From the NCBI GenBank assembly GCA_028291985.1, contig JAQGNE010000061.1:9713-73712 (forward strand): a stretch of DNA of 64,000 bases. The letters run 5' to 3'. The notes under the pieces are model-generated. The model saw only the letters and a program-made list of their open reading frames with translations, searched no databases and had not been told where the DNA came from. The DNA is from Polaromonas sp. Its GTDB lineage: Bacteria > Pseudomonadota > Gammaproteobacteria > Burkholderiales > Burkholderiaceae_C. Below, one piece after another: positions 1,194 to 59,960 of this stretch. Numbering within the stretch: position 1 is the stretch's first letter; each line of letters opens with the position of its first letter. Position numbers and translations under genes: made by a program.

Positions 1194-4100
1194 TTGAAAC
1201 TGCGCCGGCGACAGCCGATAATCGAAAGTTTTGAGCCGCTTTCCTTGTCGCTACAGCCACAACACCCATCCTCGCCATCCAGATTCCCATCACGGCCAGT
1301 GATCGATTTCCCGGAGTCGCTGCCGGTATCGGGCAAGCGGGACGAAATCACCACCGCCATACAGTCGCACCAGGTGGTGATCGTCTGTGGTGAAACCGGC
1401 TCCGGCAAGACAACGCAGTTGCCCAAAATCGCACTGGCTATGGGTCGGGGCAAGCTGAACTACCCGGTGGGTCAGCGTGCAAAGCTCATTGGCCATACGC
1501 AGCCAAGGCGGATAGCGGCCTCCAGCGTGGCCAAGCGTATCGCTGAAGAACTGAAAACGCCGCTGGGCGAGGTAGTGGGCTACAAGGTGCGGTTTCAGGA
1601 CCGCCTGAGCCGCGATGCTTCTGTCAAGCTGATGACGGACGGCATCCTGCTGGCGGAAACACAAACCGATCCGCTGCTCAATGCCTATGACACGCTCATC
1701 ATTGATGAAGCCCATGAGCGCAGCCTGAATATCGACTTTTTGCTGGGCTTTGTGCGGCAGCTGCTACCGCGCCGGCCGGACCTGAAGGTCATCATCACGT
1801 CGGCCACCATCGACGCACAGCGCTTTGCAAATTACTTCGAGTCAGCCAAGGGGCCGGCACCTGTCATCATGGTGTCAGGCCGGATGTTTCCAGTCGAGCA
1901 ACGCTGGCGGCCTTTTGAAGAATCGCGCGACCATGACCTCAACGACGCCATCGCCGACGCTGTGGACGAGTTGTGGGCCAGCCCGCACAACGCGGGCGAT
2001 ATCCTGGTCTTCCTGCCTGGCGAGCGCGAGATCCGCGAAGCTGCCGACCACTTACGAAAGCACCTCGCCCATCAGCCCCTGAATCGCCATGCGGAGGTGT
2101 TGCCACTGTTCGCCCGTCTGAGCCAGGCCGAACAAGACCGAATTTTTGACGGGCACAGCGGGCGCCGGGTTGTGCTGGCCACCAATGTGGCCGAGACCTC
2201 ACTCACTGTTCCGGGTATCCGATTTGTCATTGACGCTGGAACCGCGAGGGTCAAGCGCTACAGTTTCAGGAGCAAGGTCGAGCAGCTGATGGTTGAGCCG
2301 GTGTCGCAGGCAGCGGCCAATCAGCGTGCCGGTCGTTGCGGCCGCGTTGCTGACGGTATCTGCATACGCTTGTACGACGAACAGGATTTTGCCGGCAGGC
2401 CACGTTTCACCGATCCTGAAATCCTGCGCAGCTCGCTGGCTGCCGTCATCTTGAGGATGAAAGCACTGCGCCTTGGCGCGGTTGAAGATTTTGCGTTCAT
2501 CGAGCCGCCACAGCGCCGCGCGATTGCCGACGGTTATCAATTGCTGGCCGAGCTGGGCGCGGTGGATGAGCAGAATGAGCTCACACCCGTTGGCACTAAC
2601 CTGGCAAGGCTGCCACTGGACCCTCGCATCGGTCGCATGATTCTGGAGGCCCGGGACCGTAGCTCCCTCGACGAGGTGCTGGTAATTGCCAGTGCGCTAA
2701 GCGTGCAGGATGTGCGTGACCGGCCGATCGACAAGCAGGCACAGGCCGATCAGCAGCACGCCAAGTTCGATGATGAGAAAAGCGAATTCAGCAGCTATTT
2801 GAAGTTGTGGAAATGGCTGGATGTCAGCCGCGGCGGACACGGCACCGAGCACAAGCTGTCAAACCGCCAGTATGAAAACCTGCTGCGCGAGAACTACGTC
2901 AATATCCGGCGGGTGCGTGAATGGCGCGACATCCATTCGCAGCTGCATGCCGTGGTCGGCGAGCAGAAATGGGTGCTCAATGACAAGCCTGCGAGCTATG
3001 AGCAGCTTCACTTGTCCATGTTGTGCGGCTTGCTGGGCAACATCGGCTGCAAGAGCGAAGAAGCACCCTCAGCCCCGCGCCCCGGTGCCGAGCGGACGAG
3101 CTCGGGACAGGGCGAGTACCTGGGCGCGCGCGGTATCAAGTTTTTCCCGCACCCTGGTGCCAAGCTGAGCAAGAGGCCGGGGCGCTGGATTGTTGCGGCC
3201 GAACTGGTCGAGACCACGCGCCTGTTCGGGCGGGGCATTGCCAACATCGACCCGGCCTGGATCGAACAGGTTGCCGGGCATTTGCTGAAAAAGCAGTTGC
3301 TGGACCCGCACTGGGAAAAGAAGGCGGCCCAGGTCACTGCCCTGGAGAGGGCCACGCTGTATGGCTTGACGGTCTATAGCGGCAGGCGTGCCAATTTTGG
3401 CCGGGTAGACCCCGCCGCCGCGCGAGAAGTCTTCATTCGGGAGGCCCTGGTTGCCGGCAACTGGGACACCCGCCTGCCGTTTCTGGCCGCCAATCAAAAG
3501 CTCGTCGGCAGCGTGCAGGAGCTGGAGCACAAGGCGCGCCGGCAGGATGTACTGGTGGATGAAGAGCTGATCTACGCCTTTTATGACCAACACCTGCCCG
3601 CCAGCATCTGCAGCGGTGTCGGGTGCGAGAGCTGGTACAAGGAAGAAGCCCGGCGCCAGCCGAAACTGCTCTTTATGACGCAAGAAGAGCTGATGCGTCA
3701 TGAAGCGAGCGGCATCACCTCACAGGCGTTTCCGCGCACCTTGCGAATGGGCGGCGTCGATTGCCCGGTGGCCTACCTGCATGAGCCCGGCGACGCGAAA
3801 GACGGCCTCACTGTGGATGTGCCGCTTTTTGCGCTGAACCAGGTCAATGAAGAGCGCTGTGAATGGCTGGTTCCCGGCATGCTGAAGGACAAGGTACAGG
3901 CGTTGCTCAAGACACTGCATCAGCGGCCACGCTCCCGGCTGGTGCCATTGCCTGAAACCGCTGCCCGCATGGCCGAACAGCTCAACCAGCCGCAGACATT
4001 CGGCACCGGCTCGTTGACAGACGCGCTGCTCAAGCTGGTGCGGGATGCCACGTCGGTGGACGTCAAACGCGGCGACATCAAGCTGGAGATGCTTCCCCCG

Positions 4101-5279
4101 CATCTGTTCATGAACGTGCGTGTGGTGGATGACAATGGCCGGCAGATGGGCATGGGCCGCAACATTGGAGCGCTGAAGGCCGAACTGGGCACGCAGGCAA
4201 GAGGTGCATTCCAGGCGCTGGCCGTTTTGAAAGGCGCGACGCCGTCAGGGCCTGTTGATGCCGTCTCTGGTGAGCCAAGCAAGAAAAATGAATCAAATAG
4301 GCCTCTAGCCCAGAACCTGCGAGGGCTAGTAGCTCCTGAAATCGTAGCAAAATCAACATCTGGACCAGCGACCGTCAGCGTACCGAAAGCGCCCGCACGC
4401 TACACCAGCTGGGCCTTCGGGGAGCTGCCCGAACTGATGGAGATACGCAAGGGCAACCAGACGCTGATCGGGTTTCCAGCGCTGATCGACCTGGGATTAG
4501 AGGGTGGTGGCGCCGTCACCATTGAGGTGTTTGACGAGCCGGCGCTTGCCGCGCTGCGTCACCGTACAGGCTTGCGTCGGCTTTTTTCGCTTCAGATCAG
4601 GGAGACGTTGAAGCACCTGGAGAAAAACCTGCCAGAGCTGCAGAAAATGGCGACGCAGTTCATGCTGGTGGGACGCGGCCCGGACAACTCGGGCGGAGGA
4701 ACTCTGGAAGAGCTGCGGGCGCAGATCATCGAGGTCTCACTCGACCGCGCATTTTTAACCGATCCCCTGCCCAGCACTGAGGCCGAATTCAGCAAGCGTG
4801 TGGAAGACGGTCGCGCGCGGCTGACGCTGATCGCGCAGGAAGTGGCGCGTCTCGCGGCTGCGATCCTTGCCGAGCACGCCGTTGCCCAGCGCAAGATCAA
4901 GGAGACGCGTAACGCGGCAGAAGCAGTGACCGACACCGCGCAGCAACTGCAGCGGCTGGTGCCCAAGACATTTTTGACCGCCACGCCTTACGCCCAGCTC
5001 CAGCACTTTCCGCGCTACCTGAAAGCGATTACCTTGCGGCTGGAAAAATGGCGCAGCGACCCCGCCCGAGATACTGCACGCATGGCGGAGGTCAAACCCC
5101 AGGAGCAGCGTTACTGGCGTTTGTTTGCCGAACGCAAGGGCAGGGCAGACGCAAGGATGCAGGAATTTCGCTGGCTGCTGGAAGAACTGCGGGTCAGCCT
5201 CTTTGCGCAAGAGCTAAGGACCCCACAACCAGTTAGCCTGAAGCGACTGGACAAGGTCTGGGCGCAGCTGAGCAGCTAG
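1194..5279 (+). CDS. hrpA: ATP-dependent RNA helicase HrpA
   Basis: GETGSGKTTQLPK, HTQPRRIAA, DEAHERS, SAT, QRAGRCGR motifs; C-terminus ELRVSLFAQEL; 1361 aa. Confidence 0.97.
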   Translation: MKLRRRQPIIESFEPLSLSLQPQHPSSPSRFPSRPVIDFPESLPVSGKRDEITTAIQSHQVVIVCGETGSGKTTQLPKIALAMGRGKLNYPVGQRAKLIGHTQPRRIAASSVAKRIAEELKTPLGEVVGYKVRFQDRLSRDASVKLMTDGILLAETQTDPLLNAYDTLIIDEAHERSLNIDFLLGFVRQLLPRRPDLKVIITSATIDAQRFANYFESAKGPAPVIMVSGRMFPVEQRWRPFEESRDHDLNDAIADAVDELWASPHNAGDILVFLPGEREIREAADHLRKHLAHQPLNRHAEVLPLFARLSQAEQDRIFDGHSGRRVVLATNVAETSLTVPGIRFVIDAGTARVKRYSFRSKVEQLMVEPVSQAAANQRAGRCGRVADGICIRLYDEQDFAGRPRFTDPEILRSSLAAVILRMKALRLGAVEDFAFIEPPQRRAIADGYQLLAELGAVDEQNELTPVGTNLARLPLDPRIGRMILEARDRSSLDEVLVIASALSVQDVRDRPIDKQAQADQQHAKFDDEKSEFSSYLKLWKWLDVSRGGHGTEHKLSNRQYENLLRENYVNIRRVREWRDIHSQLHAVVGEQKWVLNDKPASYEQLHLSMLCGLLGNIGCKSEEAPSAPRPGAERTSSGQGEYLGARGIKFFPHPGAKLSKRPGRWIVAAELVETTRLFGRGIANIDPAWIEQVAGHLLKKQLLDPHWEKKAAQVTALERATLYGLTVYSGRRANFGRVDPAAAREVFIREALVAGNWDTRLPFLAANQKLVGSVQELEHKARRQDVLVDEELIYAFYDQHLPASICSGVGCESWYKEEARRQPKLLFMTQEELMRHEASGITSQAFPRTLRMGGVDCPVAYLHEPGDAKDGLTVDVPLFALNQVNEERCEWLVPGMLKDKVQALLKTLHQRPRSRLVPLPETAARMAEQLNQPQTFGTGSLTDALLKLVRDATSVDVKRGDIKLEMLPPHLFMNVRVVDDNGRQMGMGRNIGALKAELGTQARGAFQALAVLKGATPSGPVDAVSGEPSKKNESNRPLAQNLRGLVAPEIVAKSTSGPATVSVPKAPARYTSWAFGELPELMEIRKGNQTLIGFPALIDLGLEGGGAVTIEVFDEPALAALRHRTGLRRLFSLQIRETLKHLEKNLPELQKMATQFMLVGRGPDNSGGGTLEELRAQIIEVSLDRAFLTDPLPSTEAEFSKRVEDGRARLTLIAQEVARLAAAILAEHAVAQRKIKETRNAAEAVTDTAQQLQRLVPKTFLTATPYAQLQHFPRYLKAITLRLEKWRSDPARDTARMAEVKPQEQRYWRLFAERKGRADARMQEFRWLLEELRVSLFAQELRTPQPVSLKRLDKVWAQLSS
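4295..4349 (+). repeat. 55-bp double-dyad element, copy 1 (in frame within hrpA)
   Basis: AAATAGGCCTCTAGCCC-AGAACCTGCGA-GGGCTAG-TAGCTCCTGAAATCGTAGCA; perfect CTAGCCC/GGGCTAG stem. Confidence 0.85.
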
Positions 5280-14560: not shown

Positions 14561-14650
14561 TGGCGGAAGAGGCGGGATTCGAACCCGCGGTAGGTTTAAC
14601 CCTACGCACGCTTTCCAGGCGTGTGACTTAAACCGCTCATCCACCCTTCC
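14561..14650 (-). tRNA. tRNA-Ser (anticodon GGA), 90 nt, CCA encoded
   Basis: GGAAGGG/CTCTTCC acceptor stem, CACGC-CTGGAAA-GCGTG anticodon arm, long variable arm, GGTTCGAATCC T-loop, 3' GCCA. Confidence 0.97.
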
Positions 14651-20093: not shown

Positions 20094-20148
20094 AAAAAAA
20101 GCTCCAGCCCATTGAACATAAGCGTTTATAGCTATCGATTAAGTAGCA
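20094..20148 (+). repeat. 55-bp double-dyad element, copy 2 (intergenic)
   Basis: AAAAAAAGCTCCAGCCC-ATTGAACATAA-GCGTTTA-TAGCTATCGATTAAGTAGCA. Confidence 0.8.
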
Positions 20149-20375
20149 TCAATCAATGTTGCAGCCATGTTAACTGATCAGCTTTCAGCGTAAAAGGATG
20201 TGACCGTCCTTGACGGCCACACGCTTGTCTGGGGAGACTGTCGCCTTCCTGCCACGTCGGCAGCTTCGACATACGTTTTCATTTCGCCTAAACCACACGC
20301 TCACAAATCAGGTTCGTCAACGGAGCGCCCGCCCGGCCGCTCCTGCTGCTCAGGCCGTGCCTGGGCGGGCTGCCG

Positions 20376-22304
20376 ATGCAAGAGCCCCAAACTTCTGACC
20401 CGCGCGCCAGGCGACCTAACCGCTCGCGTCGATGGTTCGTCGACTGGCGCAACACATCCACCCCCAAGCCGGCATTGCCAGGCAAGTCTGCCGCCGGCCA
20501 TCTGAAGGAGAAGCATTTGGATTTCGCTTACCCCCGTCCCCAGCTCGAACGTTCTCAATGGACCAGCTTGAATGGAACCTGGCGTTTTTGCTACGACGAC
20601 ACCGCATCGCTGATCACGCCTCAGCAGATTGAGGATTGGCCTATGGAGATAGTTGTGCCATTTCCCCCGGAATCGCGCGCCAGCGGTATCGGAGACCAGG
20701 GCTTTCACAAGGTCTGCTGGTATGAGCGTGACTTCGACCTCCAGCCCAACGGCGACCGCGTCATTCTGCGGTTTGGTGCGGTTGACTATGCGGCCAAGGT
20801 CTGGGTCAATGGCCAGCTTGCCGTGACGCACGAAGGCGGGCATACCCCTTTTTCGGCCGACATTACCCATCTGCTGAACCCCGAAGGCACGCAAACCGTT
20901 ACGGTGCGTGCAGAAGATGACCCGGCCGACCTGACCAAGCCGCGCGGCAAGCAGGACTGGCAACTCGAGCCACATGCCATCTGGTACCCGCGTACCTCCG
21001 GCATCTGGCAAACCGTGTGGCTTGAAGAAGTTGGAAACACCTATATCGACAAGCTCCGCTGGACGCCCAAGGTCGAAGGCTACGCCATCGGCTTTTACGG
21101 CCGCATTGGCGGCGATCCGAGCGACAACCTGCTGATCGAGGTCACGCTGTCGGTGGGGGACCGGCTCCTCGCCTGCGACCGCTACCAAGTGGTGGACGGC
21201 GAGGTAGACCGCTCGATTTCGCTGTCCGACCCCGGGATTGACGACTTTCGCAATGAGCTGTTGTGGAGCCCCGAGCGGCCCACGCTGCTGGACGCCAGGA
21301 TTCGCCTGCTGCGCGGCGGCGTCGTGCTGGACGAATTCAAGTCTTACACCGCGTTGCGCTCTGTCAACATCATGCGCGAGCGCTTCATGCTCAACGGCAG
21401 GCCCTACATGCTGCGCATGGTGCTGGACCAGGGTTACTGGCCCGACACCCTGCTCGCCGCGCCCAGTGATGAGGCGCTGCGCAAAGATGTCGAACTGGCC
21501 AAGGCGATGGGTTTCAATGGCGTGCGCAAGCATCAGAAGGTGGAAGACCCGCGCTATTTGTATTGGGCCGACAAGCTCGGCCTGCTGGTATGGGAAGAGA
21601 TGCCCTCGGCCTACCGCTTCACCCGTACCGCGATCAAGCGCACCGTCAAGGAATGGGGCGAGGTGATCGAGCGGGACTACAGCCACCCATGCATCATCGT
21701 GTGGGTGCCGTTCAACGAGTCGTGGGGCGTGCCCGAGCTGACCTCGCAGGGCACACAGCGCAACGCGGTGCAGGCGCTGTACCACCTGACCAAAACGCTG
21801 GACGCAACCCGGCCGGTGATTGGAAACGACGGCTGGGAGTCTGGCGCGACCGACATCATTGGCATTCATGACTACGACAACAACATCGAGCATATTCGCC
21901 AGCGCTACGGTGCCGAAATCGAGCCTGCGCAATTGATTGACCGGCGCCGGCCGGGGGGCAGGGTGCTCACGCTGGACGGCTTTCCGCACCGCGGCCAGCC
22001 CATCATGCTCACCGAGTTTGGCGGCATCAAGTTTCAGAAAAAATCGAAGAAGGAAGCCGGCGTCAAAAAGATCTGGGGTTATTCCGACGCCAAGACCGAC
22101 GAGGAATTTGCCACCACCTATGAGGTGCTGCTGCACACGGTTATTCATACCGCGCTATTCAGCGGGTTCTGCTACACCCAGTTTGCCGATACCTTCCAGG
22201 AAGCCAATGGCCTGCTCAACGCAGACCGCACGCCAAAAATCCCGCTCAAGCGCATTTCGGCAGCCAACTCGGTGTCGCGCACCTGGATTCCGGGGGGCGT
22301 CTGA
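20376..22304 (+). CDS. Glycoside hydrolase family 2 (beta-galactosidase/glucuronidase-like)
   Basis: SLNGTWRF, LRFGAVDY, HEGGHTPF, SGIWQTVWLE, RKHQKVE, WVPFNESWG, LTEFGG. Confidence 0.93.
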   Translation: MQEPQTSDPRARRPNRSRRWFVDWRNTSTPKPALPGKSAAGHLKEKHLDFAYPRPQLERSQWTSLNGTWRFCYDDTASLITPQQIEDWPMEIVVPFPPESRASGIGDQGFHKVCWYERDFDLQPNGDRVILRFGAVDYAAKVWVNGQLAVTHEGGHTPFSADITHLLNPEGTQTVTVRAEDDPADLTKPRGKQDWQLEPHAIWYPRTSGIWQTVWLEEVGNTYIDKLRWTPKVEGYAIGFYGRIGGDPSDNLLIEVTLSVGDRLLACDRYQVVDGEVDRSISLSDPGIDDFRNELLWSPERPTLLDARIRLLRGGVVLDEFKSYTALRSVNIMRERFMLNGRPYMLRMVLDQGYWPDTLLAAPSDEALRKDVELAKAMGFNGVRKHQKVEDPRYLYWADKLGLLVWEEMPSAYRFTRTAIKRTVKEWGEVIERDYSHPCIIVWVPFNESWGVPELTSQGTQRNAVQALYHLTKTLDATRPVIGNDGWESGATDIIGIHDYDNNIEHIRQRYGAEIEPAQLIDRRRPGGRVLTLDGFPHRGQPIMLTEFGGIKFQKKSKKEAGVKKIWGYSDAKTDEEFATTYEVLLHTVIHTALFSGFCYTQFADTFQEANGLLNADRTPKIPLKRISAANSVSRTWIPGGV

Positions 22305-23401
22305 TGATGCACAGCCTGGAGCTCACCAAGCCCGACGGACGTCGGCTGACGCTGTATTCGCGCCAGCCGATTGACCCGGCGCTGGTGGCACCCAGCCCGT
22401 TTGCCGAGCCGCTGAACGCCAGCGCGCACCTGCGGTGGCATCCGCTGCGCGGCGAATGGGTGACCTACGCGGCATTCCGGCAGGGTCGCACCTTTTTGCC
22501 ACCGCCGGAATACAACCCGCTGGCCGCCACAACCCGCGCGGACAATCCTACGGAGGTACCCGCTGGCGCCTGGGACGTGGCTGTGTTCGACAACCGGTTC
22601 CCGTCGCTGGCGGCGCTAGTGCCCGGCGCAAACCCGCCGCCACAGATGATCGTCGCGACTGCACCAGGGGCTGGACATTGCGAGGTAGTGGTCTTCACGC
22701 AGGACCCCAAAGCCTCGCTCGGAGGTTTGCCGCTGCCGCATATCGAGCTGCTGATGCAGGTGTGGGGAGACCGCACACAGCAGGTAGGTTCGCGCGATGG
22801 TATTGAATATGTATTGCCGTTTGAAAACCGTGGCGCCGAGGTTGGCGTGACGCTGCACCATCCGCACGGCCAGATCTACGCTTACCCGGTGGTGCCGCCA
22901 GTGCCAGCACGCATGCAGCAGGTCGCGCAGGAGCACTTTCAACAAGCGGGTCGTGGCGTGCTTGATCTGATGATCGAGAACGAACGCCGGGACGGCAAGC
23001 GCATGCTGTATGAAGGCCCCCATGCGGTCGCCTTTGTTCCGGTCTGCGCACGCTACCCCTATGAGGTGTGGATTGCGCCGATCAAGCCTGTGGCTGGTTT
23101 TGCCCAGTTGGGTGATGAAGAGCGCGCCGACCTGGCGCGCGCGCTCAAGACCGTGCTGTTGAAATACGACGGCTTGTGGGATCGCCCATTGCCTTACCTG
23201 ATGGCCTGGTACCAGGCGCCGACCGATGGTCAGCCCCACCCCGAGTCGCATTTGCATGCACAGCTGTACCCGCCGTACCGCACCAAAGACCGGCTGAAGT
23301 ACCTGGCTGGCACCGAAATCGCCGCCGGGTTCTTCGCGATGGATGCGCTTCCTGAAGAAAAAGCGCTTGAGCTGCAACAGGTTCAGGTGGTGCTCTCATG
23401 A
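22304..23401 (+). CDS. galT: Galactose-1-phosphate uridylyltransferase
   Basis: [38 protein letters not shown] (HPH catalytic motif); TGATG coupling. Confidence 0.93.
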
Positions 23402-24471
23402 TGAGTGCTTTTGAAAGCGTTTTTGGCGCACAGCCCCAGGCGGTAGCCCAGGCGCCGGGCCGGGTCAATCTGCTGGGCGAGCACACCGACTACAACGACG
23501 GGTTTGTGCTGCCGATTGCCATACCGCAGCAAACTACTGTAGCCATGCGCGCGAATGGCACCGGCAGCTTCAGGCTCCATGCAGCGGAACTCGGCTCCAC
23601 CGTAAGCTTCAAGCTGGGCCAGCCGCCGGCAGAGCATTTTGCAAGCTATGTGTATGGCTGCCTGGTGCTCGGCCAGGCTGAAGGGGCAGCGATCGCCCCA
23701 CTGGACATTCATGTGGCGTCCGAGGTTCCCATGGGCGTTGGACTTTCCTCCAGCGCGGCCCTGGAGGTAGCGACGCTGCGCTGCCTGCGGCAGTTGCTCG
23801 ACATGCGGCTGGATGATGTTCAGATCGCCCGGCTGGCCCAACGCGCCGAGATCGAATTTGCGGGCGTGCGCTGCGGCATCATGGACCAGATGGCATCCAG
23901 CCTTGCCGACACCCGGCTTGCGCTGCTGCTGGACACCCGCACGCTGGTCAGGCGGTTCGTAGCCTTGCCACCGGGCAGCACGGTACTGGTACTTGACTCG
24001 GGTATCTCTCGCTCGCTTGCCAGCAGTGGCTACAACGAGCGGCGCGCGGAATGCGAGCAGGCCGCGCAACTTATCGGCGTGCCGTCGCTGCGCGATGTGC
24101 AAACCCTTGGCGACTTGCAGCAATTGCCCGACCGGCTGATGCGCCGCGCACGGCATGTCATCACCGAAAACGAGCGAGTGCTGCGTGCGGTGGACTGTGG
24201 TGACGCGGCCGCTTTCGGACACCTGATGAACGCGTCACACCAAAGCCTGCGGGATGATTACGAGGTGTCGACGCCCGGGCTTGACTTGCTGGTCGACCTG
24301 CTGCAGGCGCATCCGGCTGTTTTTGGTGCTCGCCTGACGGGCGCCGGTTTTGGTGGCGCCTGCGTGGCGCTGTGCCGCAGCGATGCCGCACATGAGGTGG
24401 GGCGCGAGGTATTGAGCAGCTACAGCCGCGCCGGTCAGTCGGGCAGACAACTGGTGCCGCCTGTCCTGTAG
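23398..24471 (+). CDS. galK: Galactokinase
   Basis: [45 protein letters not shown]. Confidence 0.96.
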
Positions 24472-24548
24472 ATCAGTGATACTCAGCCGGCCGCAGCACC
24501 CGGCCTTTAGATGCCCACGGCAGGCTCTGCCTGCCTCATCGTTTTTTC

Positions 24549-25297
24549 ATGCAACCCAGCGACATCGAAACCATTGAGCGTGCAACCCTTGCAGCCTTAT
24601 CGCCTGACGCAGTGGAGGATGCCTGGGGCTGGTTACTGCCTTTTGATGGCGGAAAAATCAGCCGCTCCAGAACTGCGGTGCCCCTGGCGCATGACTTGCT
24701 GATGTGACGGACGTGGCGGTTATTGAAAACATCGAAGATCGTTACCGACGCCGTGGTCTGCTGCCTGTTTTTCGCTTGCCGTCGGCCCCAGGCTTTGACG
24801 CAATTGCGGCAGGCGCTCCAGCGAAAGGGCTACTGCGCCGACCGTGCGGTCCCGGTGCAGGTGGCACCCGCCCAGATGGTGCGCCGCATTTGCGCGTCGC
24901 CAAGGGATGAACTGGCAGACGCACCCGACACCGCATGGGCCGCGCTATTTTTAGGCGATGGAATTGACCCGGTTGATGGGGCCAAACGGGTACGGTCCAT
25001 GAGTCGCGCCGAAGGCTCTCTTTTTGCATGCCTGCGCGAGCATGGCCAGACGGTGGCTGCAGGCGCCGGCGCTTTCAGCCATGGCTGGGCCAGCGTCCAC
25101 GGCGTGCGCACGGCCACGGCCAACCGGGGCAAAGGCTACGCTTCGCAAGTGCTGGCCGCACTGGCACAGGCAGCGCTCGGCAAACAACTGGAGCGCATCT
25201 TCCTGCAGCTAGAGGAAGGAAACACCGCCGCCGAGGTTTGTACCGCCGCGCTGGTTTTGAAACCGTGTGGCGCTATGCCTACTGGCGATGCGCGTAA
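24549..25297 (+). pseudogene. GNAT family acetyltransferase broken by three frameshifts
   Basis: MQPSDIETIERATLAALSP...GWLLPFD (stop at 24705), then IEDRYRRRGLLPVFRLP, then LRQALQRKGY...HGVRTATANRGKGYAS...FLQLEEGN, then GLYRRAGFETVWRYAYW*, each in a different frame from the previous block. Confidence 0.85.
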
Positions 25298-25346
25298 CCG
25301 GGCCGTGCGGCCCTCGCTCGCCGGGGTGGTCTTCAGACCCACCGTA

Positions 25347-25402
25347 TGCTATTAACATCATAGCTTACAGTCCATGTCTTATAAGGGCTGTAGCCCTACT
25401 TT
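25347..25402 (-). repeat. 55-bp double-dyad element, copy 3 (intergenic, convergent gap)
   Basis: Minus strand AAAGTAGGGCTACAGCCC-TTATAAGACAT-GGACTGT-AAGCTATGATGTTAATAGCA; stem ACAG/CTGT covaries with CTAG/CTAG of copy 1. Confidence 0.85.
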
Positions 25403-29224: not shown

Positions 29225-30362
29225 AGATAGCGGTACCCAGCCGGAGACGGTCGTTGACGGTTTGCCAGCCGGGCAGACGCCTGGCGCGGAGAGACAAAAC
29301 GCGGCTGGCGACGATACACCCGACGCAGCGGCTACCGTCAGTCTCAGCCCCGGCCGCAGAGCCTGGCAGCGCTTTCGGCGCAACAAACTGGGCTTTTCCA
29401 GCCTGGTCATGTTCACGGTTTTGGTGGTGTTCAGCCTGTTTGCGGAAGTGATTTCCAACGACAAGCCATTGGTTGTCAATTACCAGGGCACGTTTTACTT
29501 TCCGCTGGTCAAGGATTATTCCGAAAAGACCTTTGGTGGCGACTTCGACACGCCTGCAGACTACCTCGACCCGTTCATCCGGAGCAGGCTGAACCAGGAC
29601 GATAACTGGGCGCTGTATCCGCCCAATCCTTATGGTCCCAGAACCATCAACTACTTTGCCAAAGAGCCGAACCCGTCCGCACCCTCGCGCGACAACCTGT
29701 TTGGCACCGACGATCGCGGGCGCGACCTGCTGGCGCAACTGATCTACGGCTTTCGCCTGAGCGTGCTGTTCGGCCTGGCCTTGACTGCCATCGGCGTGGT
29801 GATCGGCATTGCCACCGGGGCTATGCAGGGCTATGCCGGTGGCAAAACAGACCTGTTTGTTCAGCGCTTCATGGAAATCTGGGGCGCCATGCCAGAGCTG
29901 TACCTGTTGATCATTTTCAGCGCCATGTTTGCGCCCAGCGTTGGCCTGCTGCTGTTCCTGCTCAGCCTCTTTGGGTGGATGGGCCTGTCGGACTATGTGC
30001 GGGCAGAGTTTCTGCGCAACCGCCAGCTGGACTATGTCCGCGCCGCCAAGGCGCTTGGCGTCAGCAACCTGAGCATCATGCGCCGGCACATTCTGCCCAA
30101 CAGCATGACGCCGGTGGTGACTTTTTTGCCCTTTCGAATGAGTGCAGCGATTCTGGCGCTGACCTCGCTCGATTTTCTGGGGCTGGGTGTGCCGCCGGGT
30201 ACGCCATCGCTTGGCGAGTTGCTGAATCAGGGCAAAGCCAACATTGATGCATGGTGGATTTCGCTGTCAACATTTGCCGTGCTGGTCGTGACCTTGCTTC
30301 TGCTGACCTTTATGGGCGATGCACTGCGCGACGCACTGGATCCGCGAAAGGTCGATGCATGA
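29190..30362 (+). CDS. yejE: Peptide ABC transporter permease YejE (start uncertain)
   Basis: AWQRFRRNKLG, NDKPLVV, GTDDRGRD, EFLRNRQLDYVRAA, LRDALDPR. Confidence 0.9.
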   Translation: MSGWIRVYGLTKDSGTQPETVVDGLPAGQTPGAERQNAAGDDTPDAAATVSLSPGRRAWQRFRRNKLGFSSLVMFTVLVVFSLFAEVISNDKPLVVNYQGTFYFPLVKDYSEKTFGGDFDTPADYLDPFIRSRLNQDDNWALYPPNPYGPRTINYFAKEPNPSAPSRDNLFGTDDRGRDLLAQLIYGFRLSVLFGLALTAIGVVIGIATGAMQGYAGGKTDLFVQRFMEIWGAMPELYLLIIFSAMFAPSVGLLLFLLSLFGWMGLSDYVRAEFLRNRQLDYVRAAKALGVSNLSIMRRHILPNSMTPVVTFLPFRMSAAILALTSLDFLGLGVPPGTPSLGELLNQGKANIDAWWISLSTFAVLVVTLLLLTFMGDALRDALDPRKVDA

Positions 30363-30429
30363 TGCCGTTAGCAATTTCCCGGGCGGCATGCTACAGGCGT
30401 GCAAGGCTTCTCCGCGGGCAGACAAGCTC

Positions 30430-32034
30430 ATGAATCAGCCGCTTCTGGAGGTCAGCAACCTGCGCATTTCGTTTGCCGGAAAAGAGGTTGTTCACGGCAT
30501 TGATTTTTCAATCGCACCGGGCGAAAAGCTTGCGCTGGTCGGCGAGTCGGGGTCCGGAAAAACCGTCACGGCCTTAAGCCTGTTGCGGCTGGCGCAGGAT
30601 GCATCCGTCAGCGGAAGTGCGGTCTTTCAGGGTCAGGCCGGCCCGAGCGATTTGCTGGCTCTGTCGGAGCGCCAATTGCGCGGTATTCGCGGCCAGGACA
30701 TCTCGATGATTTTTCAGGAGCCGATGACGGCCCTGAATCCGCTGTTCAGCGTGGGTGATCAGATTGCCGAGGTTTTAGAGCTAAAAACAGGCCTAGCACG
30801 CATATCTGCTTGGAATGAAGCTATTGAATTGCTAGCAAGCACCGGTATTGCAGAACCCGCGCGGCGCGCGCGCTCGTTTCCGCATCAGCTCTCGGGCGGC
30901 CAACGCCAGCGCGCCATGATTGCGATGGCCCTGGCCTGCAAGCCCAGGCTGCTGCTGGCTGACGAGCCCACCACGGCGCTGGATGTCACCGTGCGGAGCC
31001 AGATCCTGGACGTGCTGGCCAACCTGCAGCGGCAAACCGGCATGGCGGTGTTGATGATCACGCATGACCTCAACCTGGTGCGCCGCTTTGCCACACGGGT
31101 GGCCGTGATGGAAAACGGCCATATCGTGGAGCAAGGAACGGTCGACGATGTCTTCCAGCGTCCGCAGCACGCCTACACACGCAAGCTGATCGACAGCACG
31201 CCAACCCGTGACGAGCATGAAGCCCGGCCTGACGCCTCGCTCCCGCCGGTGATGAAAGCCCGGGCGCTTCGCGTCAGCTATCCGGTACGTACGCCCGGCT
31301 TCAAAGGCTGGTTCAAGGCCGGGCAGTTTGTGGCGGTGCAGGATGCCAGCTTTGAGATTCCGGCTGGCCAAACGCTGGGCGTGATCGGCGAATCAGGCTC
31401 TGGCAAGTCCAGTCTTGCACTGGCGGCTTTGGGCTTGCATCCGCACAGCGGCCAGCTTGAAGTTGTCGGCAAGGGCTGGAGCGGCAGCACAGCCGCCAAC
31501 AAGGCCTTGCGACGCGCAGTGCAGGTGGTGTTTCAGGATCCCTTTTCATCGCTGTCGCCACGGATGACGATCGGTGAAATCGTCGGCGAGGGGCTTGATG
31601 TGCATCAGCCGGGGCTTTTGTCTGCCGAGCGCCGTCAGCGCGTCGTACGGGCGCTTTCCGATGTCGGCATGCATCAGACGCTCTTTCCTGGCCTGCTTCA
31701 ACGCTATCCGCATGAGTTTTCAGGCGGGCAGCGTCAGCGGATTGCGATTGCCAGAGCCTTGATCGTTGAACCTCAACTGCTGGTATTGGACGAACCCACC
31801 AGCGCACTTGACGTGACCATCCAAAAGCAGGTTCTGCAATTGCTGCAGCGCTTGCAACGGGAGCGCGGCCTGAGCTATCTGCTGATCACCCACGATGTCG
31901 ATGTGATTCGCGCCATGGCTCACCGGGTGCTGGTGATGAAAAGCGGCAAGGTCATAGAAAGCGGCACTGCGGCAGAGGTGCTGCGATCGCCGCAGCAGGC
32001 CTACACCCGTATCCTTGTGGCTGCTCCGGGCTGA
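30430..32034 (+). CDS. yejF: Peptide ABC transporter ATPase with two NBDs (YejF)
   Basis: Two Walker A (GESGSGKT, GESGSGKS), two LSGGQRQR/FSGGQRQR, two DEPT motifs. Confidence 0.93.
   Translation: MNQPLLEVSNLRISFAGKEVVHGIDFSIAPGEKLALVGESGSGKTVTALSLLRLAQDASVSGSAVFQGQAGPSDLLALSERQLRGIRGQDISMIFQEPMTALNPLFSVGDQIAEVLELKTGLARISAWNEAIELLASTGIAEPARRARSFPHQLSGGQRQRAMIAMALACKPRLLLADEPTTALDVTVRSQILDVLANLQRQTGMAVLMITHDLNLVRRFATRVAVMENGHIVEQGTVDDVFQRPQHAYTRKLIDSTPTRDEHEARPDASLPPVMKARALRVSYPVRTPGFKGWFKAGQFVAVQDASFEIPAGQTLGVIGESGSGKSSLALAALGLHPHSGQLEVVGKGWSGSTAANKALRRAVQVVFQDPFSSLSPRMTIGEIVGEGLDVHQPGLLSAERRQRVVRALSDVGMHQTLFPGLLQRYPHEFSGGQRQRIAIARALIVEPQLLVLDEPTSALDVTIQKQVLQLLQRLQRERGLSYLLITHDVDVIRAMAHRVLVMKSGKVIESGTAAEVLRSPQQAYTRILVAAPG
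30783..30837 (+). repeat. 55-bp double-dyad element, copy 4 (in frame within yejF, degenerate first stem)
   Basis: AAAAACAGGCCTAGCAC-GCATATCTGCT-TGGAATG-AAGCTATTGAATTGCTAGCA; local burst of A/T-ending codons. Confidence 0.65.
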
Positions 32035-38034: not shown

Positions 38035-39063
38035 ATGCCGCCATCCACTGTTTCCCGCCAGAAAATTCAGCGACGTCCCGTTCACGGCGTGCTGCTGCTC
38101 GACAAGCCGCTGGGCTTATCGAGCAACCAGGCGCTGCAAAAGGCAAAGTGGCTGTTGCGCGCTGAAAAAGCTGGCCATACCGGCACGCTGGACCCGCTTG
38201 CAACCGGCGTGTTGCCGCTGTGTTTTGGAGCCGCCACGAAGTTCAGCCAGATGCAACTGGAGGCCGACAAGACCTATGAAGCCCTACTGATCCTGGGCGT
38301 TAAAACCACCACCGCTGACGCCGAGGGCGACGTGATCGAGAGGCGGGCAGTGCCGCCCATCACGCCGGAGTTGCTGGCGGATCTGACGCACCGTTTCACC
38401 GGCCCGCTGAAGCAGGTTCCGCCGATGTACTCCGCGCTGAAGAAGGACGGCAAGGCGCTGTACGAATATGCCAGGGCTGGCCGTGAAGTAGAGCGTGAGG
38501 CACGTCATATCACCGTTTTTAAGCTAAATATGACTTCAGCCCAGGATCCACTTGGGCTGGTAGCTATTAAAATCATAGTGTCATGTAGCAAGGGGACCTA
38601 TATCCGCACGCTCGGTGAAGACATCGGCGAGGCGATCGGTTGCGGCGCGCATTTGGGTTCGCTGCGCCGGATTGAAACCGGCGGCTTTACAGCCAGCCAG
38701 TGCATCAGCCTGGCCGCACTTGAAGCCATGACCGAAGCCGAACGCGATGCCCAGCTGCTACCGCCACAGTCACTGGTATCGGCTTTCCCGGTTGTCACAT
38801 TGGATGCCGACAATGCAGGACGTTTTTTAAGCGGGCTACGCCGCAGGGGCGAAGCCGGCCAGTTTGGCGACGATGCGCCACTGGTGCAGGTTTATGGCTC
38901 TGAGCCACGGGCGTTCCTGGGTTCAGCTCACATCACGGCCAATGAATTGATACCGCAACGTCTACTGAGCCCGGTTGAGGTGCAGGCGATCTGGCAGGCC
39001 GGCATGCAAAACATGCCGCCGGGCCTGCCCGTCTCGCATGCACAGCCCGCCTTGTCGGGCTAG
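38035..39063 (+). CDS. truB: tRNA pseudouridine(55) synthase
   Basis: GVLLLDKP, GHTGTLDPLATG, PMYSALK, CSKGTYIR. Confidence 0.96.
   Translation: MPPSTVSRQKIQRRPVHGVLLLDKPLGLSSNQALQKAKWLLRAEKAGHTGTLDPLATGVLPLCFGAATKFSQMQLEADKTYEALLILGVKTTTADAEGDVIERRAVPPITPELLADLTHRFTGPLKQVPPMYSALKKDGKALYEYARAGREVEREARHITVFKLNMTSAQDPLGLVAIKIIVSCSKGTYIRTLGEDIGEAIGCGAHLGSLRRIETGGFTASQCISLAALEAMTEAERDAQLLPPQSLVSAFPVVTLDADNAGRFLSGLRRRGEAGQFGDDAPLVQVYGSEPRAFLGSAHITANELIPQRLLSPVEVQAIWQAGMQNMPPGLPVSHAQPALSG
38526..38580 (+). repeat. 55-bp double-dyad element, copy 5 (in frame within truB)
   Basis: AAATATGACTTCAGCCC-AGGATCCACTT-GGGCTGG-TAGCTATTAAAATCATAGTG. Confidence 0.87.
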
Positions 39064-40994: not shown

Positions 40995-41049
40995 AAATAG
41001 CGCTACAGCCCTTGTAGAGCAAGGGCGAGGTGCTATACAAAAAAGAGCG
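40995..41049 (+). repeat. 55-bp double-dyad element, copy 6 (intergenic, overlaps the typA terminator)
   Basis: AAATAGCGCTACAGCCC-TTGTAGAGCAA-GGGCGAG-GTGCTATACAAAAAAGAGCG. Confidence 0.8.
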
Positions 41050-43498: not shown

Positions 43499-44383
43499 AT
43501 GACGAAAAACGTGTTGACCCATCGCCGAGCCGTCATGCTAATGGTGGTGGTAACCCTGCTATGGTCCATGGCTGGCGTTGTGACCCGGCATCTGGAATCC
43601 GCACGCAGCTTTGAGGTGACTTTCTGGAGAAGCTTTTTCACCGTCGTATCTCTGCTGATCATCCTGCCATTTTTTCAGGGTCGCATGGTTTTCACCCGCA
43701 TACGTCAGGCAGGCTCAGCGCTGTGGCTGTCGGGACTGTGCTGGAGCATCATGTTTACAGCATTCATGGTGGCGCTGACTTTGACGACAGTTGCGAACGT
43801 ACTGGTCACCATGGCAATCGGTCCCTTCATTACCGCTTTGCTGGCCCGGATATTCATAGGCCACCGGATTCCGGGCCGCACCTGGCTTGCGATTGCGCTG
43901 GCTGGCGCCGGAATAGCCTGGATGTACGGTGGGCAAGTTGATCTGTCGAGCCAGATTGCCGGCACCCTGGTGGCGTTGCTGGTGCCCTTTGCGGCAGCAA
44001 CCAACTGGACAGTGGTGCAATACAGCCGAACCCACGGACAGAATGTTGACCTGGTCCCAGCCGTGCTGGTAGGCGCGGTGATGTCATCGGCAATCACCTT
44101 GCCACTGGCTTTTCCGTTGTCGGCGACACCACACGACATCGGTCTGCTGGCTCTGCTCGGTTTATTTCAACTCGCCATACCCTGCGTGCTCTCCGTGTTG
44201 TGTGCCGGTATTCTGAAAGCACCGGAAGTCTCATTGCTGGGGCTGCTGGAGGTGATTTTTGGTATTTTGCTGGCTTGGCTGGGCGCAGGAGAGGAGCCTG
44301 GCGCCCATGTATTGACCGGCGGGGCGCTGGTGATTGGCGCACTGGTCCTGAACGAAATAATTGCTTGGAGACAAAAATCGTGA
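43499..44383 (+). CDS. DMT/EamA family transporter
   Basis: Ten hydrophobic segments, FWRSFF, TTVANV, LLGLLEVIFG. Confidence 0.9.
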   Translation: MTKNVLTHRRAVMLMVVVTLLWSMAGVVTRHLESARSFEVTFWRSFFTVVSLLIILPFFQGRMVFTRIRQAGSALWLSGLCWSIMFTAFMVALTLTTVANVLVTMAIGPFITALLARIFIGHRIPGRTWLAIALAGAGIAWMYGGQVDLSSQIAGTLVALLVPFAAATNWTVVQYSRTHGQNVDLVPAVLVGAVMSSAITLPLAFPLSATPHDIGLLALLGLFQLAIPCVLSVLCAGILKAPEVSLLGLLEVIFGILLAWLGAGEEPGAHVLTGGALVIGALVLNEIIAWRQKS

Positions 44384-45576
44384 ACACATCCACTTTGCCT
44401 GGCGACAGGTCCGGTGCACCTGACGACATCACCGAGGTCATCGCGGAACGCCGCGGCAACGCCGGGCTGATCACCTTGAACCGGCCCAAGGCATTGAACG
44501 CCCTGAACCTGCCCATGATCCGGGCTCTCACGGCGACGCTCCTTGCATGGCGCGACGACGCTGCCGTGCAGCTGGTGGCGATTAGGGGCACCAACAAAGC
44601 GGGGCGACCTGGCACGCCGGACGCCCTGTTTGGTGGTTTTTGCGCCGGCGGAGACATTCGGTTTTTTCACCAGGCCGCACTGGCCAACGATGCACTGCTG
44701 GAAGCTTTTTTCACCGAAGAGTACACACTTAACTACCTCATACAAACCTACCCGAAGCCCTATATCGCCTTCATGGACGGCGTGGTGATGGGTGGCGGCA
44801 TGGGTTTATGCCAGGGCGAATCGCATTCGGCTCATCGTGCGGGCAAGGTCCGCATCGTGACCGAACACACCAAGATGGCGATGCCCGAAACCAATATCGG
44901 GCTTTTCCCGGATGTCGGCGGCGGTTATTTCTTGAGCCGCTGCCCGGGTCATGCGGGGGAATACCTTGCGCTGACGGGTGAGGCCATCGGCGCACAGGAC
45001 GCCATTGGTTTTGGACTCGCTGACGTCCAAAGACCCGCTGCCTCGCTGCCAGAACTGTGGGATAAGTTAGGTACTCACCGGACTGAGACACAAAATGCCG
45101 CAAACGCATGGGTTGCTACTGAATTCATAGCTGAAGCCCCTGGTACAACCAAGGACACCGGCACGATTGATCAATATTTTGGGCTTTTGCGAGTCAAGCA
45201 TATCGTTGACGCCCTTGAAAAGTCACCCGACCCGTGGGCCGTCAAGATGGGCGCGGTTTTACGCAAGCGCTCCCCGCTCATGCTGCACGTCGCGCTAGAG
45301 CAGATTCGCAGGGCGCGCGGCATGTCCCTGGCGGACAACCTGTGCATGGAGCGCAAGATGGTGCACCAGTGCTTTAACCTGCGCCCGGGAACAGCCAGCG
45401 AAACGGTCGAAGGTATCCGCGCACTGGCGGTTGACAAAGACTACACACCAAAGTGGTCCCCCGGACGTATCGAAGATGTCAAACCCGGCATGGCCGATGC
45501 GTTTTTCGCCAGTCCATGGGCACCCGATGCGCATCCCTTGAAAGACCTGCACGACCCGGGTCAGACGCGTCTATAA
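44380..45576 (+). CDS. 3-hydroxyisobutyryl-CoA hydrolase-like crotonase
   Basis: TLNRPKALNAL, FCAGGD, FFTEEY, GVVMGGGMG, AMPETNIGLFPDVGG, EGIRALAVDKD; GTG start overlapping the DMT stop. Confidence 0.9.
   Translation: MNTSTLPGDRSGAPDDITEVIAERRGNAGLITLNRPKALNALNLPMIRALTATLLAWRDDAAVQLVAIRGTNKAGRPGTPDALFGGFCAGGDIRFFHQAALANDALLEAFFTEEYTLNYLIQTYPKPYIAFMDGVVMGGGMGLCQGESHSAHRAGKVRIVTEHTKMAMPETNIGLFPDVGGGYFLSRCPGHAGEYLALTGEAIGAQDAIGFGLADVQRPAASLPELWDKLGTHRTETQNAANAWVATEFIAEAPGTTKDTGTIDQYFGLLRVKHIVDALEKSPDPWAVKMGAVLRKRSPLMLHVALEQIRRARGMSLADNLCMERKMVHQCFNLRPGTASETVEGIRALAVDKDYTPKWSPGRIEDVKPGMADAFFASPWAPDAHPLKDLHDPGQTRL
45114..45168 (-). repeat. 55-bp double-dyad element, copy 7 (antisense, inside the crotonase ORF)
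   Basis: Minus strand AATCGTGCCGGTGTCCT-TGGTTGTACCA-GGGGCTT-CAGCTATGAATTCAGTAGCA. Confidence 0.75.
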
Positions 45577-52605: not shown

Positions 52606-52610
52606 GAGTC

Positions 52611-54082
<1,472 letters not shown>

Positions 54083-55612: not shown

Positions 55613-56605
55613 GTGAAAAAGCATATTTACATTTATTCCCCTTCCAGCGCCGTGCGGGACAAAAGTGGCTTCAAGCGGGGCGTGGTGCGTTTGAAGTCCA
55701 TGGGTTATGAGGTTGAGGTCGATCCGGACGCGCTTGCGGTTCATCAGCGATTTGCCGGTACCGACGAGACACGCCTGGCGGCGATTCACCGCGCTGCCGC
55801 TAGCGGCGCCGACATCGCGCTCATCTCGCGCGGTGGATACGGCCTGAGCCGAATCCTTGGCGCCATCAACTACAAGGCAGTGTCCAAGGCCGCAGCTGGC
55901 GGAACCCGGTTTGTGGGCTTCAGTGATTTCACTGCGTTGCAGCTGGCACTGCTGGCCAAGACTGGGGCGACAAGCTGGGCCGGCCCTGCGCTGGCGGAGG
56001 ACCTGGGTGCAGAAGACGGGCCGGACGACATCATGCAGGCCTGCTTTGAGGACCTGGTGTCAGGTCAGGCAGAAGGCACCGGCTGGCGCCTGCCCAAGAT
56101 TCGCGCGATGACGCCAACCGACAACGGCAAAACTTCAGTTGATGCTAGTTTTTCGATAGCAAAAACCGCAGCAGCGACAAGACGAACCGGCGATTTTCAG
56201 GTCAAAAATGCAACCTTGTGGGGTGGCAGCCTGGCGATGCTGTCCTCTCTGGTCGGCACGCCTTATTTGCCGGCAGTCAAAGGTGGCATTCTGTTTTTGG
56301 AAGATGTGGCTGAGCATCCCTACCGCGTTGAACGCATGTTGACCCAATTGCTGCATGCCGGTGTGCTCGCGCAGCAAAAAGCAATCATCTTCGGCCAGTT
56401 CACGCATTACAAATTGCAACCACATGACAAGGGTTTCAAGATGAGCAGTGTCGTGGAATGGCTACAACAGCGGGTGAAGGCCAGGGTATTAACAGGCCTT
56501 CCGTTCGGTCATGTGCCAACCAAGGTCCTGCTTCCGGTAGGCGCTACCGTCAGCCTGGTGGTTGAAGAACGTGACGCCTTTGTACTGTGGGGTCATCAGC
56601 ACTAG
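55613..56605 (+). CDS. ldcA: Muramoyltetrapeptide LD-carboxypeptidase (S66)
   Basis: SPSS, SRGGYG, GFSDFTA, LWGGSL, FLEDVAEHPYRVERML, FGHV. Confidence 0.93.
   Translation: MKKHIYIYSPSSAVRDKSGFKRGVVRLKSMGYEVEVDPDALAVHQRFAGTDETRLAAIHRAAASGADIALISRGGYGLSRILGAINYKAVSKAAAGGTRFVGFSDFTALQLALLAKTGATSWAGPALAEDLGAEDGPDDIMQACFEDLVSGQAEGTGWRLPKIRAMTPTDNGKTSVDASFSIAKTAAATRRTGDFQVKNATLWGGSLAMLSSLVGTPYLPAVKGGILFLEDVAEHPYRVERMLTQLLHAGVLAQQKAIIFGQFTHYKLQPHDKGFKMSSVVEWLQQRVKARVLTGLPFGHVPTKVLLPVGATVSLVVEERDAFVLWGHQH
56143..56197 (-). repeat. 55-bp double-dyad element, copy 9 (antisense, degenerate, inside ldcA)
   Basis: Minus strand AAAATCGCCGGTTCGTC-TTGTCGCTGCT-GCGGTTT-TTGCTATCGAAAAACTAGCA; head and tail in the same register as other copies. 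Confidence 0.55.
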
Positions 56606-59905: not shown

Positions 59906-59960
59906 TGCTATGCATTAGATAGCTATAGGCCCTTGCGTTCAATGGGCTACAGCCACTTTT
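59906..59960 (-). repeat. 55-bp double-dyad element, copy 10 (intergenic, convergent gap)
   Basis: Minus strand AAAAGTGGCTGTAGCCC-ATTGAACGCAA-GGGCCTA-TAGCTATCTAATGCATAGCA. Confidence 0.87.

Follow-up and report, generated by a model that had tools for sequence, protein, structure and literature searches.

The 64,000-nt stretch of Polaromonas sp. analysed here (contig JAQGNE010000061.1, positions 9,713 to 73,712; termed the window) carries, within hrpA, truB and other genes as well as between genes, copies of a bipartite motif of about 55 bases (45-56 bp) that occurs hundreds of times in the 3.58-Mb assembly of this genome, labelled G000. Copies lying within genes are read mainly in one frame on each strand, and this two-frame rule is predictable from the invariant letters of the motif and amino-acid frequencies alone. 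The motif is probably a conserved DNA recognition signal overlaid on proteins and kept, we infer, by selection or drive on the DNA rather than by ongoing transposition, and it resembles uptake-signal sequences more closely than a jumping repeat.

An iterative nhmmer search of the assembly gave 577 matches at E<=1, 479 at E<0.01, the threshold taken for the family, and 301 at E<1e-5. The consensus is (ATTTTTAAGT.)AAATAGGCCTCTAGCCC-AATAAATACAA-GGGCTTGT-AGCTAT-TAATTTA-ATAGCA, and the general form is AAA..GCC..AGCCC-N11-GGG-N5-AGCTAT-N7-RTAGCA with an optional left flank, ATTTTTAAG. Eighteen letters (AGCCC, GGG, AGCTAT and TAGC) are conserved at 70-100%, and the letters between them are near random. 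These 18 letters form four boxes at fixed spacing across 42 bp, as against the 9-12 bp core expected of an uptake signal, and the spacing is rigid, being exactly 23 nt between model positions 16 and 39 in 467 of 476 copies. The 479 copies comprise 312 that are intergenic, 51 that lie across a gene end and 116 that are wholly within genes, and invariant letters are retained almost equally in the coding copies (mean 15.75 of 18) and the intergenic copies (16.05 of 18).

A preliminary description of the window had reported five coding copies, and their peptides are present in the genes that it named. Host gene identities were taken from NCBIfam and Pfam (TIGR01967 for HrpA), and phase is defined as the codon position of G39 within AGCTAT, in model numbering. 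The copies are as follows.

4294..4349, plus strand: hrpA copy, in the open reading frame (ORF) 1299-5279 (1326 codons), sense phase 0, peptide SNRPLAQNLRGLVAPEIVA spanning 4293-4349; 42.9 bits, E=1.4e-10.
30782..30837, plus strand: degenerate copy in a yejF-like ABC ATPase gene, 30355-32034, sense phase 0, peptide LKTGLARISAWNEAIELLA spanning 30781-30837.
38526..38578, plus strand: truB copy, gene 38089-39063, sense phase 0, peptide LNMTSAQDPLGLVAIKIIV spanning 38524-38580; 35.0 bits.
45114..45168, minus strand: copy in a crotonase-family gene, 44365-45576, antisense phase 1, peptide VATEFIAEAPGTTK spanning 45112-45141; 23.3 bits.
56143..56198, minus strand: decayed ldcA copy, gene 55613-56605, antisense phase 1, peptide DASFSIAKTA spanning 56141-56170.

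The hrpA copy, CAAATAGGCCTCTAGCCCAGAACCTGCGAGGGCTAGTAGCTCCTGAAATCGTAGCA at 4294-4349 (+), is situated in a variable linker of the DUF3418 region, and the truB copy encodes a beta-hairpin running into CSKGTYIR. The crotonase-family gene is 3-hydroxyisobutyryl-CoA hydrolase-like, and its copy was sized at -1 residue relative to the G037 orthologue. Two of the copies score below the genome-wide E=1 level. That in the yejF-like gene has 16 of 18 invariant letters in register by hand alignment, with the hidden Markov model (HMM) aligning dyad 2 alone (6.5 bits). The ldcA copy (10.1 bits) has dyad 2 (GCTATCGAAAAACTAGCA), the AAA..GCC box and an ATTTTT left flank in register, also by hand alignment, and has lost dyad 1.

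In the window, the three sense copies share one phase (xxA GCT ATx) and the two antisense copies share another (GCT ATx on the other strand), and the proposal that all coding copies use two frames holds there. Genome-wide it holds for 99 of 116 copies (85%), which are in sense 0 or antisense 1, while 17 are in three other frames. Frame use is given below in the order sense 0, 1, 2 and antisense 0, 1, 2; the robust set consists of copies in genes with a strong coding score on both sides of the copy.

All 116 coding copies: sense 62, 7, 2; antisense 8, 37, 0.
Robust set, 76 copies: sense 38, 5, 0; antisense 6, 27, 0.
Expectation from a stop filter only: sense 29.5, 26.9, 1.3; antisense 1.3, 39.2, 17.7.
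Stop-free fraction of full-length intergenic copies: sense 0.48, 0.47, 0.01; antisense 0.03, 0.67, 0.28.

Phases are strongly non-random, as had been claimed, and the tally by phase and strand excludes even use of the six frames (chi-square p=1e-32); it also holds for matches at E<1e-3. The GCTA/TAGC dyads do put TAG in one frame per strand: the invariant letters place it at positions 52-54 for sense 2 and from positions 40-42 for antisense 0, and all eight antisense phase 0 copies carry TAG->GAG, which breaks an invariant letter. Filtering for stop-free phases, the cause originally suggested, therefore closes one frame on each strand, but alone it does not account for the tally (p=2e-20). The third frame on each strand, which reads AGC-TAT as Ser-Tyr, lacks stops in 47% of full-length intergenic copies on the sense strand and in 28% on the antisense strand; coding copies nevertheless use it only 7 and 0 times.

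This failure bears on the alternative that survives best, a mobile repeat of the repetitive extragenic palindromic (REP) type or the miniature inverted-repeat transposable element (MITE) type that inserts at random, with selection removing in-frame stops only and the survivors adding a peptide of about 19 residues. The stop-only expectation is what such a repeat predicts, and its rejection is one of several observations that make a mobile repeat unlikely.

The avoided frames differ from those used in the residues that the invariant letters force, as the translated patterns indicate.

Sense 0: xA[HLPQR]xxxGxxA[IM]xx[ILV]A
Sense 1: SPxxx[GRW][ADEGV]xSYxxxS
Antisense 1: A[IKMNRST]xxIAxxPxxx[GRW]A
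Antisense 2: [CGRS]Yxx[DHNY]S[CFLSWY]xPxxxxG[CFLSWY]

The product of proteome amino-acid frequencies over these patterns, based on the 18 invariant letters, predicts 73, 1.9, 30 and 1.2 copies in sense 0, sense 1, antisense 1 and antisense 2, respectively, where 62, 7, 37 and 0 were observed. A codon-usage model predicts the reverse (9.8, 43, 9.1 and 44). Likewise, the composition log-likelihood per residue is -2.82 in sense 0 and -2.91 in antisense 1, close to the proteome value of -2.83, and -3.04 and -3.16 in the avoided frames. Taken with the stop filter, these results indicate that the frames are set by stop codons and by the ordinariness of the forced residues. The rule accounts for the repeated appearance of one peptide pattern (A-I-x-x-I-A, G-L-V-A), which might otherwise be taken for a protein motif or for a sign of homology.

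The element had also been described as a repeated source of a related peptide in unrelated proteins. The peptide does recur in about 100 unrelated proteins; however, the description assumed insertion, and length comparisons support this for only part of the family. For 38 robust coding copies, chimeric queries consisting of the copy and 60 residues on each side were compared with genera with and without the motif. Orthologues were used rather than G000 paralogues, which are 25-38% identical and align unreliably near the copies. Indel sizes were read from the spans of local alignments and are approximate within loops, and selected cases were verified by codon alignment. About 18 of the 38 copies belong to an overwrite class with a net change of <=5 residues, about 11 are intermediate or lie in variable loops (+6 to +14), 7 are unit-sized insertions (+15 or more) and the length change of 2 was not assigned. 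That about half of the sampled copies add <=5 residues, and that native residues survive inside the spacer, argues against a mobile repeat.

The clearest overwritten copies are in truB and rsmB. TruB has no indel across the copy relative to 80 Comamonadaceae TruB sequences, and a structure-sequence alignment with E. coli TruB (1R3F), which it matches in length, has only a 4-residue gap. The closest relatives of the protein, at 80-84% identity, come from Polaromonas genomes, in line with the assignment of the organism to that genus. Over all 81 sequences, the codons at three sites of the copy depart from the usage of the gene.

TruB Ala159: GCT in 40 of 61 Ala codons, against 11.6% gene-wide.
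TruB Ile163: ATA in 28 of 35 Ile codons, against 8.3% gene-wide.
TruB Asn147: AAT in 30 of 31 Asn codons, against 51.6% gene-wide.

Gene-rare codons occur at this hairpin site in many Polaromonas and in some other genera, and coding copies in general keep the rare codons ATA, GCT, AGA and CTA against the usage of their host genes. RsmB is equal in length to its counterparts in motif-free congeners and, by the same type of structure-sequence alignment, to E. coli Sun (1SQF), and its spacer keeps the native residues QYLQ, written in AT-rich synonymous codons. Another copy, in a dapF-like gene, has been overwritten with little or no length change.

The clearest insertion is in metH, where an insert of exactly 20 codons separates FVAPK from the SG.ADY motif. 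Six of the eight Polaromonas tested (G000, G006, G008, G009, G001 and G010) have this insertion, and G015, G018 and the other genera do not. Comparison of filled and empty metH sites revealed no target-site duplication. Further insertions are found in a GlcD-like gene (+22) and in C38_40272 (+19-21), C54_47257 (+22-23) and C4_34338 (+20-24). The motif end in the insertion cases is partly made of recoded native codons, for example KLLR written AAG TTG CTA CGA in the GlcD-like gene, and FLLR in pgi is written TTC TTG TTA AGA. In the GlcD-like gene (C62:86580-90521, loci L155 and L156), the 22-codon segment is present in G000, G006, G008, G009, G015, G018 and two other genera. G001 and G010, both motif-free Polaromonas, lack it, and the boundaries there are clean; the segment must have been either lost precisely or gained more than once at a single site.

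The hrpA copy has a perfect 7-bp stem formed by the dyad CTAGCCC/GGGCTAG, from which it had been judged a younger event. This does not hold. A copy detectable with the HMM is present at the identical site in at least 10 congeners, all with a derived GCTCCTGAAA (Ala-Pro-Glu) replacing GCTATT, and the copy is therefore old. The orthologue comparison proposed for this gene thus recovered a same-site copy. The orthologues offer no clean empty site at which to look for a target-site duplication, and metH, where none was found, was used instead. The stem itself is an outlier in the family. Across the 479 copies, no candidate pair departs from the amount of Watson-Crick pairing that column shuffling gives, which leaves no stem covariation and makes the hrpA stem uninformative on age. 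The mean perfect stem is 1.8 bp, and stems of >=7 bp occur in only 4 of 479 copies. A structured-hairpin reading was dropped, as z-scores for the consensus and three copies are only -1 to -3.3 and covariation is nil. No copy of the element reached the gathering score of an Rfam family, and the sole gathering-score match in the window is a tRNA gene at 14564-14650 on the minus strand.

Copies are also too diverse to reflect a recent copying burst. Among 334 full-length copies, no pair matches at more than 24 of 31 variable positions and the mean identity at these positions is that expected from the columns, moderately similar pairs being slightly more numerous than expected (64 pairs matching at >=22 of 31 positions, against 16.6). 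The two ends of the consensus, AAATAGG... and ...ATAGCA, do not form an inverted repeat. Membership of the MITE class fails for want of terminal inverted repeats, a target-site duplication or near-identical copies, a parent element having been sought only as a Y1 transposase. The same three absences weigh against the mobile-repeat reading, as does the conservation of the invariant letters at above 90% where spacers have wholly diverged.

Several observations do favour mobility, among them the clean insertions in metH, the GlcD-like gene and others. Genes are depleted of copies, with 24% of copies in genes that make up about 85% of the genome, and copies are enriched at 3' ends. Convergent spacers contain 1.35 copies per kb, tandem spacers 0.61 and divergent spacers 0.25. 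In 35 cases the copy contains the stop codon of a called gene, most commonly the antisense TAG at 40-42 and then the sense TAG at 13-15, so that the motif also defines some C-termini. Copies in the same spacer can differ in orientation between species, which suggests turnover. There is no overall bias in orientation relative to flanking genes (104 versus 92) or in strand (240 versus 239), and copies are solitary, with 4 neighbour pairs within 300 nt among 404 neighbour distances, rather than paired as a mobile REP-like family would lead one to expect.

A candidate transposase is present in the form of a single-copy RAYT-like (REP-associated tyrosine transposase) Y1 transposase gene, located outside the window at C48:33982-34683 (+), with one copy of the motif 120 nt upstream. 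Its product scores 28.5 bits with Pfam Y1_Tnp, above the cut-off of that model, and 57 bits with NCBIfam REP_Tyr_transpos, below the cut-off of that one. The gene is found in 18 of 18 congeners at 59-69% identity, including four genomes with no motif, and a copy adjoins it in only 2 of 12 orthologous loci. A link to the motif was rejected, as the gene neither co-varies with it nor is consistently flanked by copies. Membership of the REPIN-RAYT system (REPINs being paired, inverted REP doublets) fails on the same point and also because the stem is not maintained and there are no doublets.

Five further copies in the window lie between genes or at a gene end.

20101..20148, plus strand: intergenic copy, E=1.5e-8, at the left edge of a block of about 5 kb absent from G018 and G015.
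25347..25398, minus strand: copy, E=7.5e-6, at the right edge of that block, overlapping the end of ORF 24804-25355.
40995..41048, plus strand: intergenic copy, E=4.4e-5, 27 nt past the stop of gene 39145-40968.
52610..52663, plus strand: intergenic copy, E=4.5e-11, between genes 52387-52605 and 52667-54082.
59906..59960, minus strand: intergenic copy, E=1.8e-10, between convergent genes 58845-59759 and 60049-62223.

The first two copies bracket a block of about 5.4 kb (20101-25398), comprising genes 20475-24471 and ORF 24804-25355, that neither G018 nor G015 has in its syntenic region; G009 has two copies with a 1.2-kb spacer at this site. The spacer near 20.1 kb also contains a copy in G015, G018 and G009, in opposite orientation in G015 and G018. 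Near 52.5 kb, G018 and G000 each have a copy, in opposite orientations, and near 59.9 kb there are two copies in G018 and one in G000. G018 also has a copy just past the stop of the crotonase-family gene (near window position 45560), where the G000 copy is inside the gene at 45114-45168.

The sequence of the motif differs between genomes in the manner of a dialect. At model position 31, 70% of G000 copies carry G, and 88% of the copies in a small sample of 26 sites from other species carry C; at position 37, 55% of G000 copies carry T and 84% of those in the same sample carry C. Same-site copies in hrpA and truB match the dialect of their own genome. HrpA and TruB accordingly read ..RGLVAPE.. 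and ..LGLVAIK.. in G000, and ..GRAQxAPE.. and ..RAPAAIK.. in relatives, G000 having GLVA at the place of RA(P/Q)A.

Dialect changes that proceed in step at old, shared copies would also be produced in a selfish or neutral family that is homogenised by frequent gene conversion and has no host function, with tracts written over coding DNA of partial similarity and the phase bias then recording the conversions that proteins survive. Overwriting without length change, a unit that is nearly always whole and the slight excess of similar pairs fit this account as well. However, gene conversion should homogenise the spacers too, and spacer identity equals the column-shuffle expectation with no near-identical pair, while the rsmB spacer keeps its native QYLQ. 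General recombination biology suggests that conversion normally starts from 20-30 bp of identity, which native coding DNA lacks. Nor would conversion alone explain the complete loss of the motif from four congeners in which the encoded peptides are kept. On this evidence, homogenisation by conversion is quite improbable as the explanation.

The exact dyad-2 pattern occurs at 48-214 sites in 14 of 18 congeners, at 8 in one and at 0 in four, and 12 genomes of other Burkholderiales families have 0-2 sites. A looser pattern occurs at 64-607 sites in 6 of 14 other genera of the same family and at 2-8 in the remaining eight. The four zero-motif Polaromonas (G001, G002, G010 and G013; 2.8-3.0 Mb) keep element-derived TruB and MetH peptides in GC-rich codons, which looks like a lineage-wide loss of the DNA constraint. 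In the motif-free genera G033, G038, G040, G043 and G044, only 2-8 GCTA-N9-TAGC sites occur against 151-249 for the reversed control, a 20-90-fold deficit that probably reflects avoidance of CTAG or TAG and makes the hundreds of copies in motif-bearing genera more striking.

An artefact of composition or of the HMM search, with Ala/Ile-rich peptides, for instance, resembling the motif by chance and a phase bias that is circular, is scarcely credible as the source of the coding matches. It is true that the weakest coding matches have E of 1e-3 to 1e-2, that the scores of the yejF and ldcA copies lie under the genome-wide E=1 score and that genes were called with our own caller. Yet full-invariant matches expected by chance in about 1 million codons round to zero, and dyad 2 occurs at 404 sites where reversed-pattern controls yield 12. 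Coding copies keep nearly as many invariant letters as intergenic ones and use rare codons, and the tally stands at E<1e-3 and in robust genes.

Among known systems, the closest parallels are the uptake signal sequences (USS) of Pasteurellaceae and the DNA uptake sequences (DUS) of Neisseriaceae, the likeness being drawn from sequence features alone. These also occur in hundreds of copies, in both orientations and within genes without length change, have a strong frame bias, encode peptides enriched in the proteome, form lineage dialects and are common just downstream of genes (PMC2817400). They differ in having a core of 9-12 bp, where the Polaromonas motif is 45-56 bp and bipartite with fixed spacers. 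The choice of frame in USS and DUS correlated better with codon preference (Findlay and Redfield 2009, PMC2817400), whereas that of the Polaromonas motif tracks amino-acid frequency and opposes codon preference. Unlike USS and DUS, some Polaromonas copies are unit-sized insertions, and the presence of ComEC does not track the motif.

Rickettsia palindromic elements (RPE), as reviewed in PMC10969869, bear a palindrome and lie in frame in unrelated housekeeping genes, where the conserved peptide that they encode is apparently compatible with protein function (Ogata et al. 2000, as cited there). They are described there as peptide-adding insertions of about 150 bp. Polaromonas copies are about 55 bp, roughly half of those sampled replace residues, and they occur in both orientations with one frame for each; in addition, the motif is held at the DNA level across genera and its dialects shift in step. 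REP and REPIN-RAYT families are likewise short, palindrome-containing, abundant, vertically persistent and enriched at 3' ends (Bertels and Rainey, PMC3116915, PMC3337134), and the single-copy RAYT-like gene adds to the likeness; however, the Polaromonas motif lacks inverted doublets and stem covariation, and 24% of its copies are in genes.

A spaced motif, ATAGCT(N)22CAAAAG, was listed in P. naphthalenivorans CJ2 as a potential novel motif of unknown role, with 125 copies (101 intergenic, 18 genic and 34 between convergent genes); GCTTAT(N)5AAGCG of Acidovorax ebreus comes from the same study (Tong et al. 2017, PMC5217627). The CJ2 motif probably represents two boxes of the family described here. 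That study reported a statistical hexamer pair only, without the full geometry, frames, orthology, overwriting or dialects (PMC5217627). BRE, a repeat of Bordetella and Comamonadaceae with most copies (29) in Polaromonas sp. JS666 and some wholly within coding sequences (Hot et al. 2011, PMC3110155), is 75-91 bp long, 69% GC and often tandem, where the Polaromonas motif is AT-rich and solitary. BRE was rejected as the same element on GC content, length and tandem habit, a separation made from its description because the text of the paper gives no sequence (PMC3110155); it appears to be a different, GC-rich element.

A number of points weigh against a recognition signal. No known uptake signal comes near the motif in length (45-56 bp, bipartite). 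The seven unit-sized insertions and about 11 intermediate cases imply that a copy-and-paste process exists or existed, and some coding copies have lost the DNA motif in genomes otherwise rich in it, as at metH in G006 and G008. Dyad 2 is almost never found apart from the full unit, 370 of its 404 sites falling inside full copies, which speaks against assembly of the motif piece by piece. Coding copies also retain AT-rich spacers (38.5% GC) that resemble the spacers of the element more than native coding DNA. The count in sense phase 1 exceeds the prediction of the amino-acid model (7 versus 1.9; model fit p=4.5e-4). Genes were called with our own codon-usage caller (3074 genes, 84% coverage), and the other-species dialect sample is partly non-independent, one copy being seen in several species. 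No trans-acting factor that reads the motif was found, the candidates examined being the RAYT-like gene and ComEC. A link to competence via ComEC (PF03772) was dropped, since the gene is present in nearly all genomes whatever their motif status and is for this reason uninformative. The ComEC gene of G000 itself has an antisense phase-1 copy, at C29:14070-14124.

The invariant letters have stayed in place at each locus while the spacers diverged fully. If the motif is a recognition signal, selection or drive on the DNA sequence would account for this, and a coding copy would have to satisfy the DNA constraint and the protein at once. The TAGC/GCTA cores read as TAG in one frame of each strand, as Ser-Pro...Ser-Tyr...Ser (or Tyr/Cys/Ser) in another and as Ala...Gly...Ala-Ile...(Ile/Leu/Val)-Ala in the third. 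Only the Ala/Gly/Ile-type frame has common, tolerated residues, and coding copies accordingly gather in one frame per strand. They probably have two origins, insertion of a whole unit as in metH (+20 codons) and overwriting of existing codons as in truB, rsmB and the dapF-like gene. A shift of dialect would then carry the encoded residues along, as GLVA in HrpA and TruB of G000 and RA(P/Q)A in relatives suggest. More tentatively, the motif may be a long bipartite signal for an uptake, segregation or repair factor, with species-level dialect shifts rewriting the same handful of residues in parallel across more than 100 unrelated proteins, RA(P/Q)A giving way to GLVA in HrpA and TruB of G000 being one example. 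In that case the evolution of a DNA signal would directly drive that of the proteome, and the two-frame rule would be the record of the compromise.

The copies allow two constraints on the same bases to be separated: one at the DNA level, which holds rare codons in essential genes across genera, and one at the protein level, which decides which reading of the motif survives. Should recognition be established as the role of the motif, no known gene-overprinting signal would be longer. Polaromonas would then offer a system, in a non-pathogenic bacterium, for the co-evolution of genome-wide DNA signals and proteomes.

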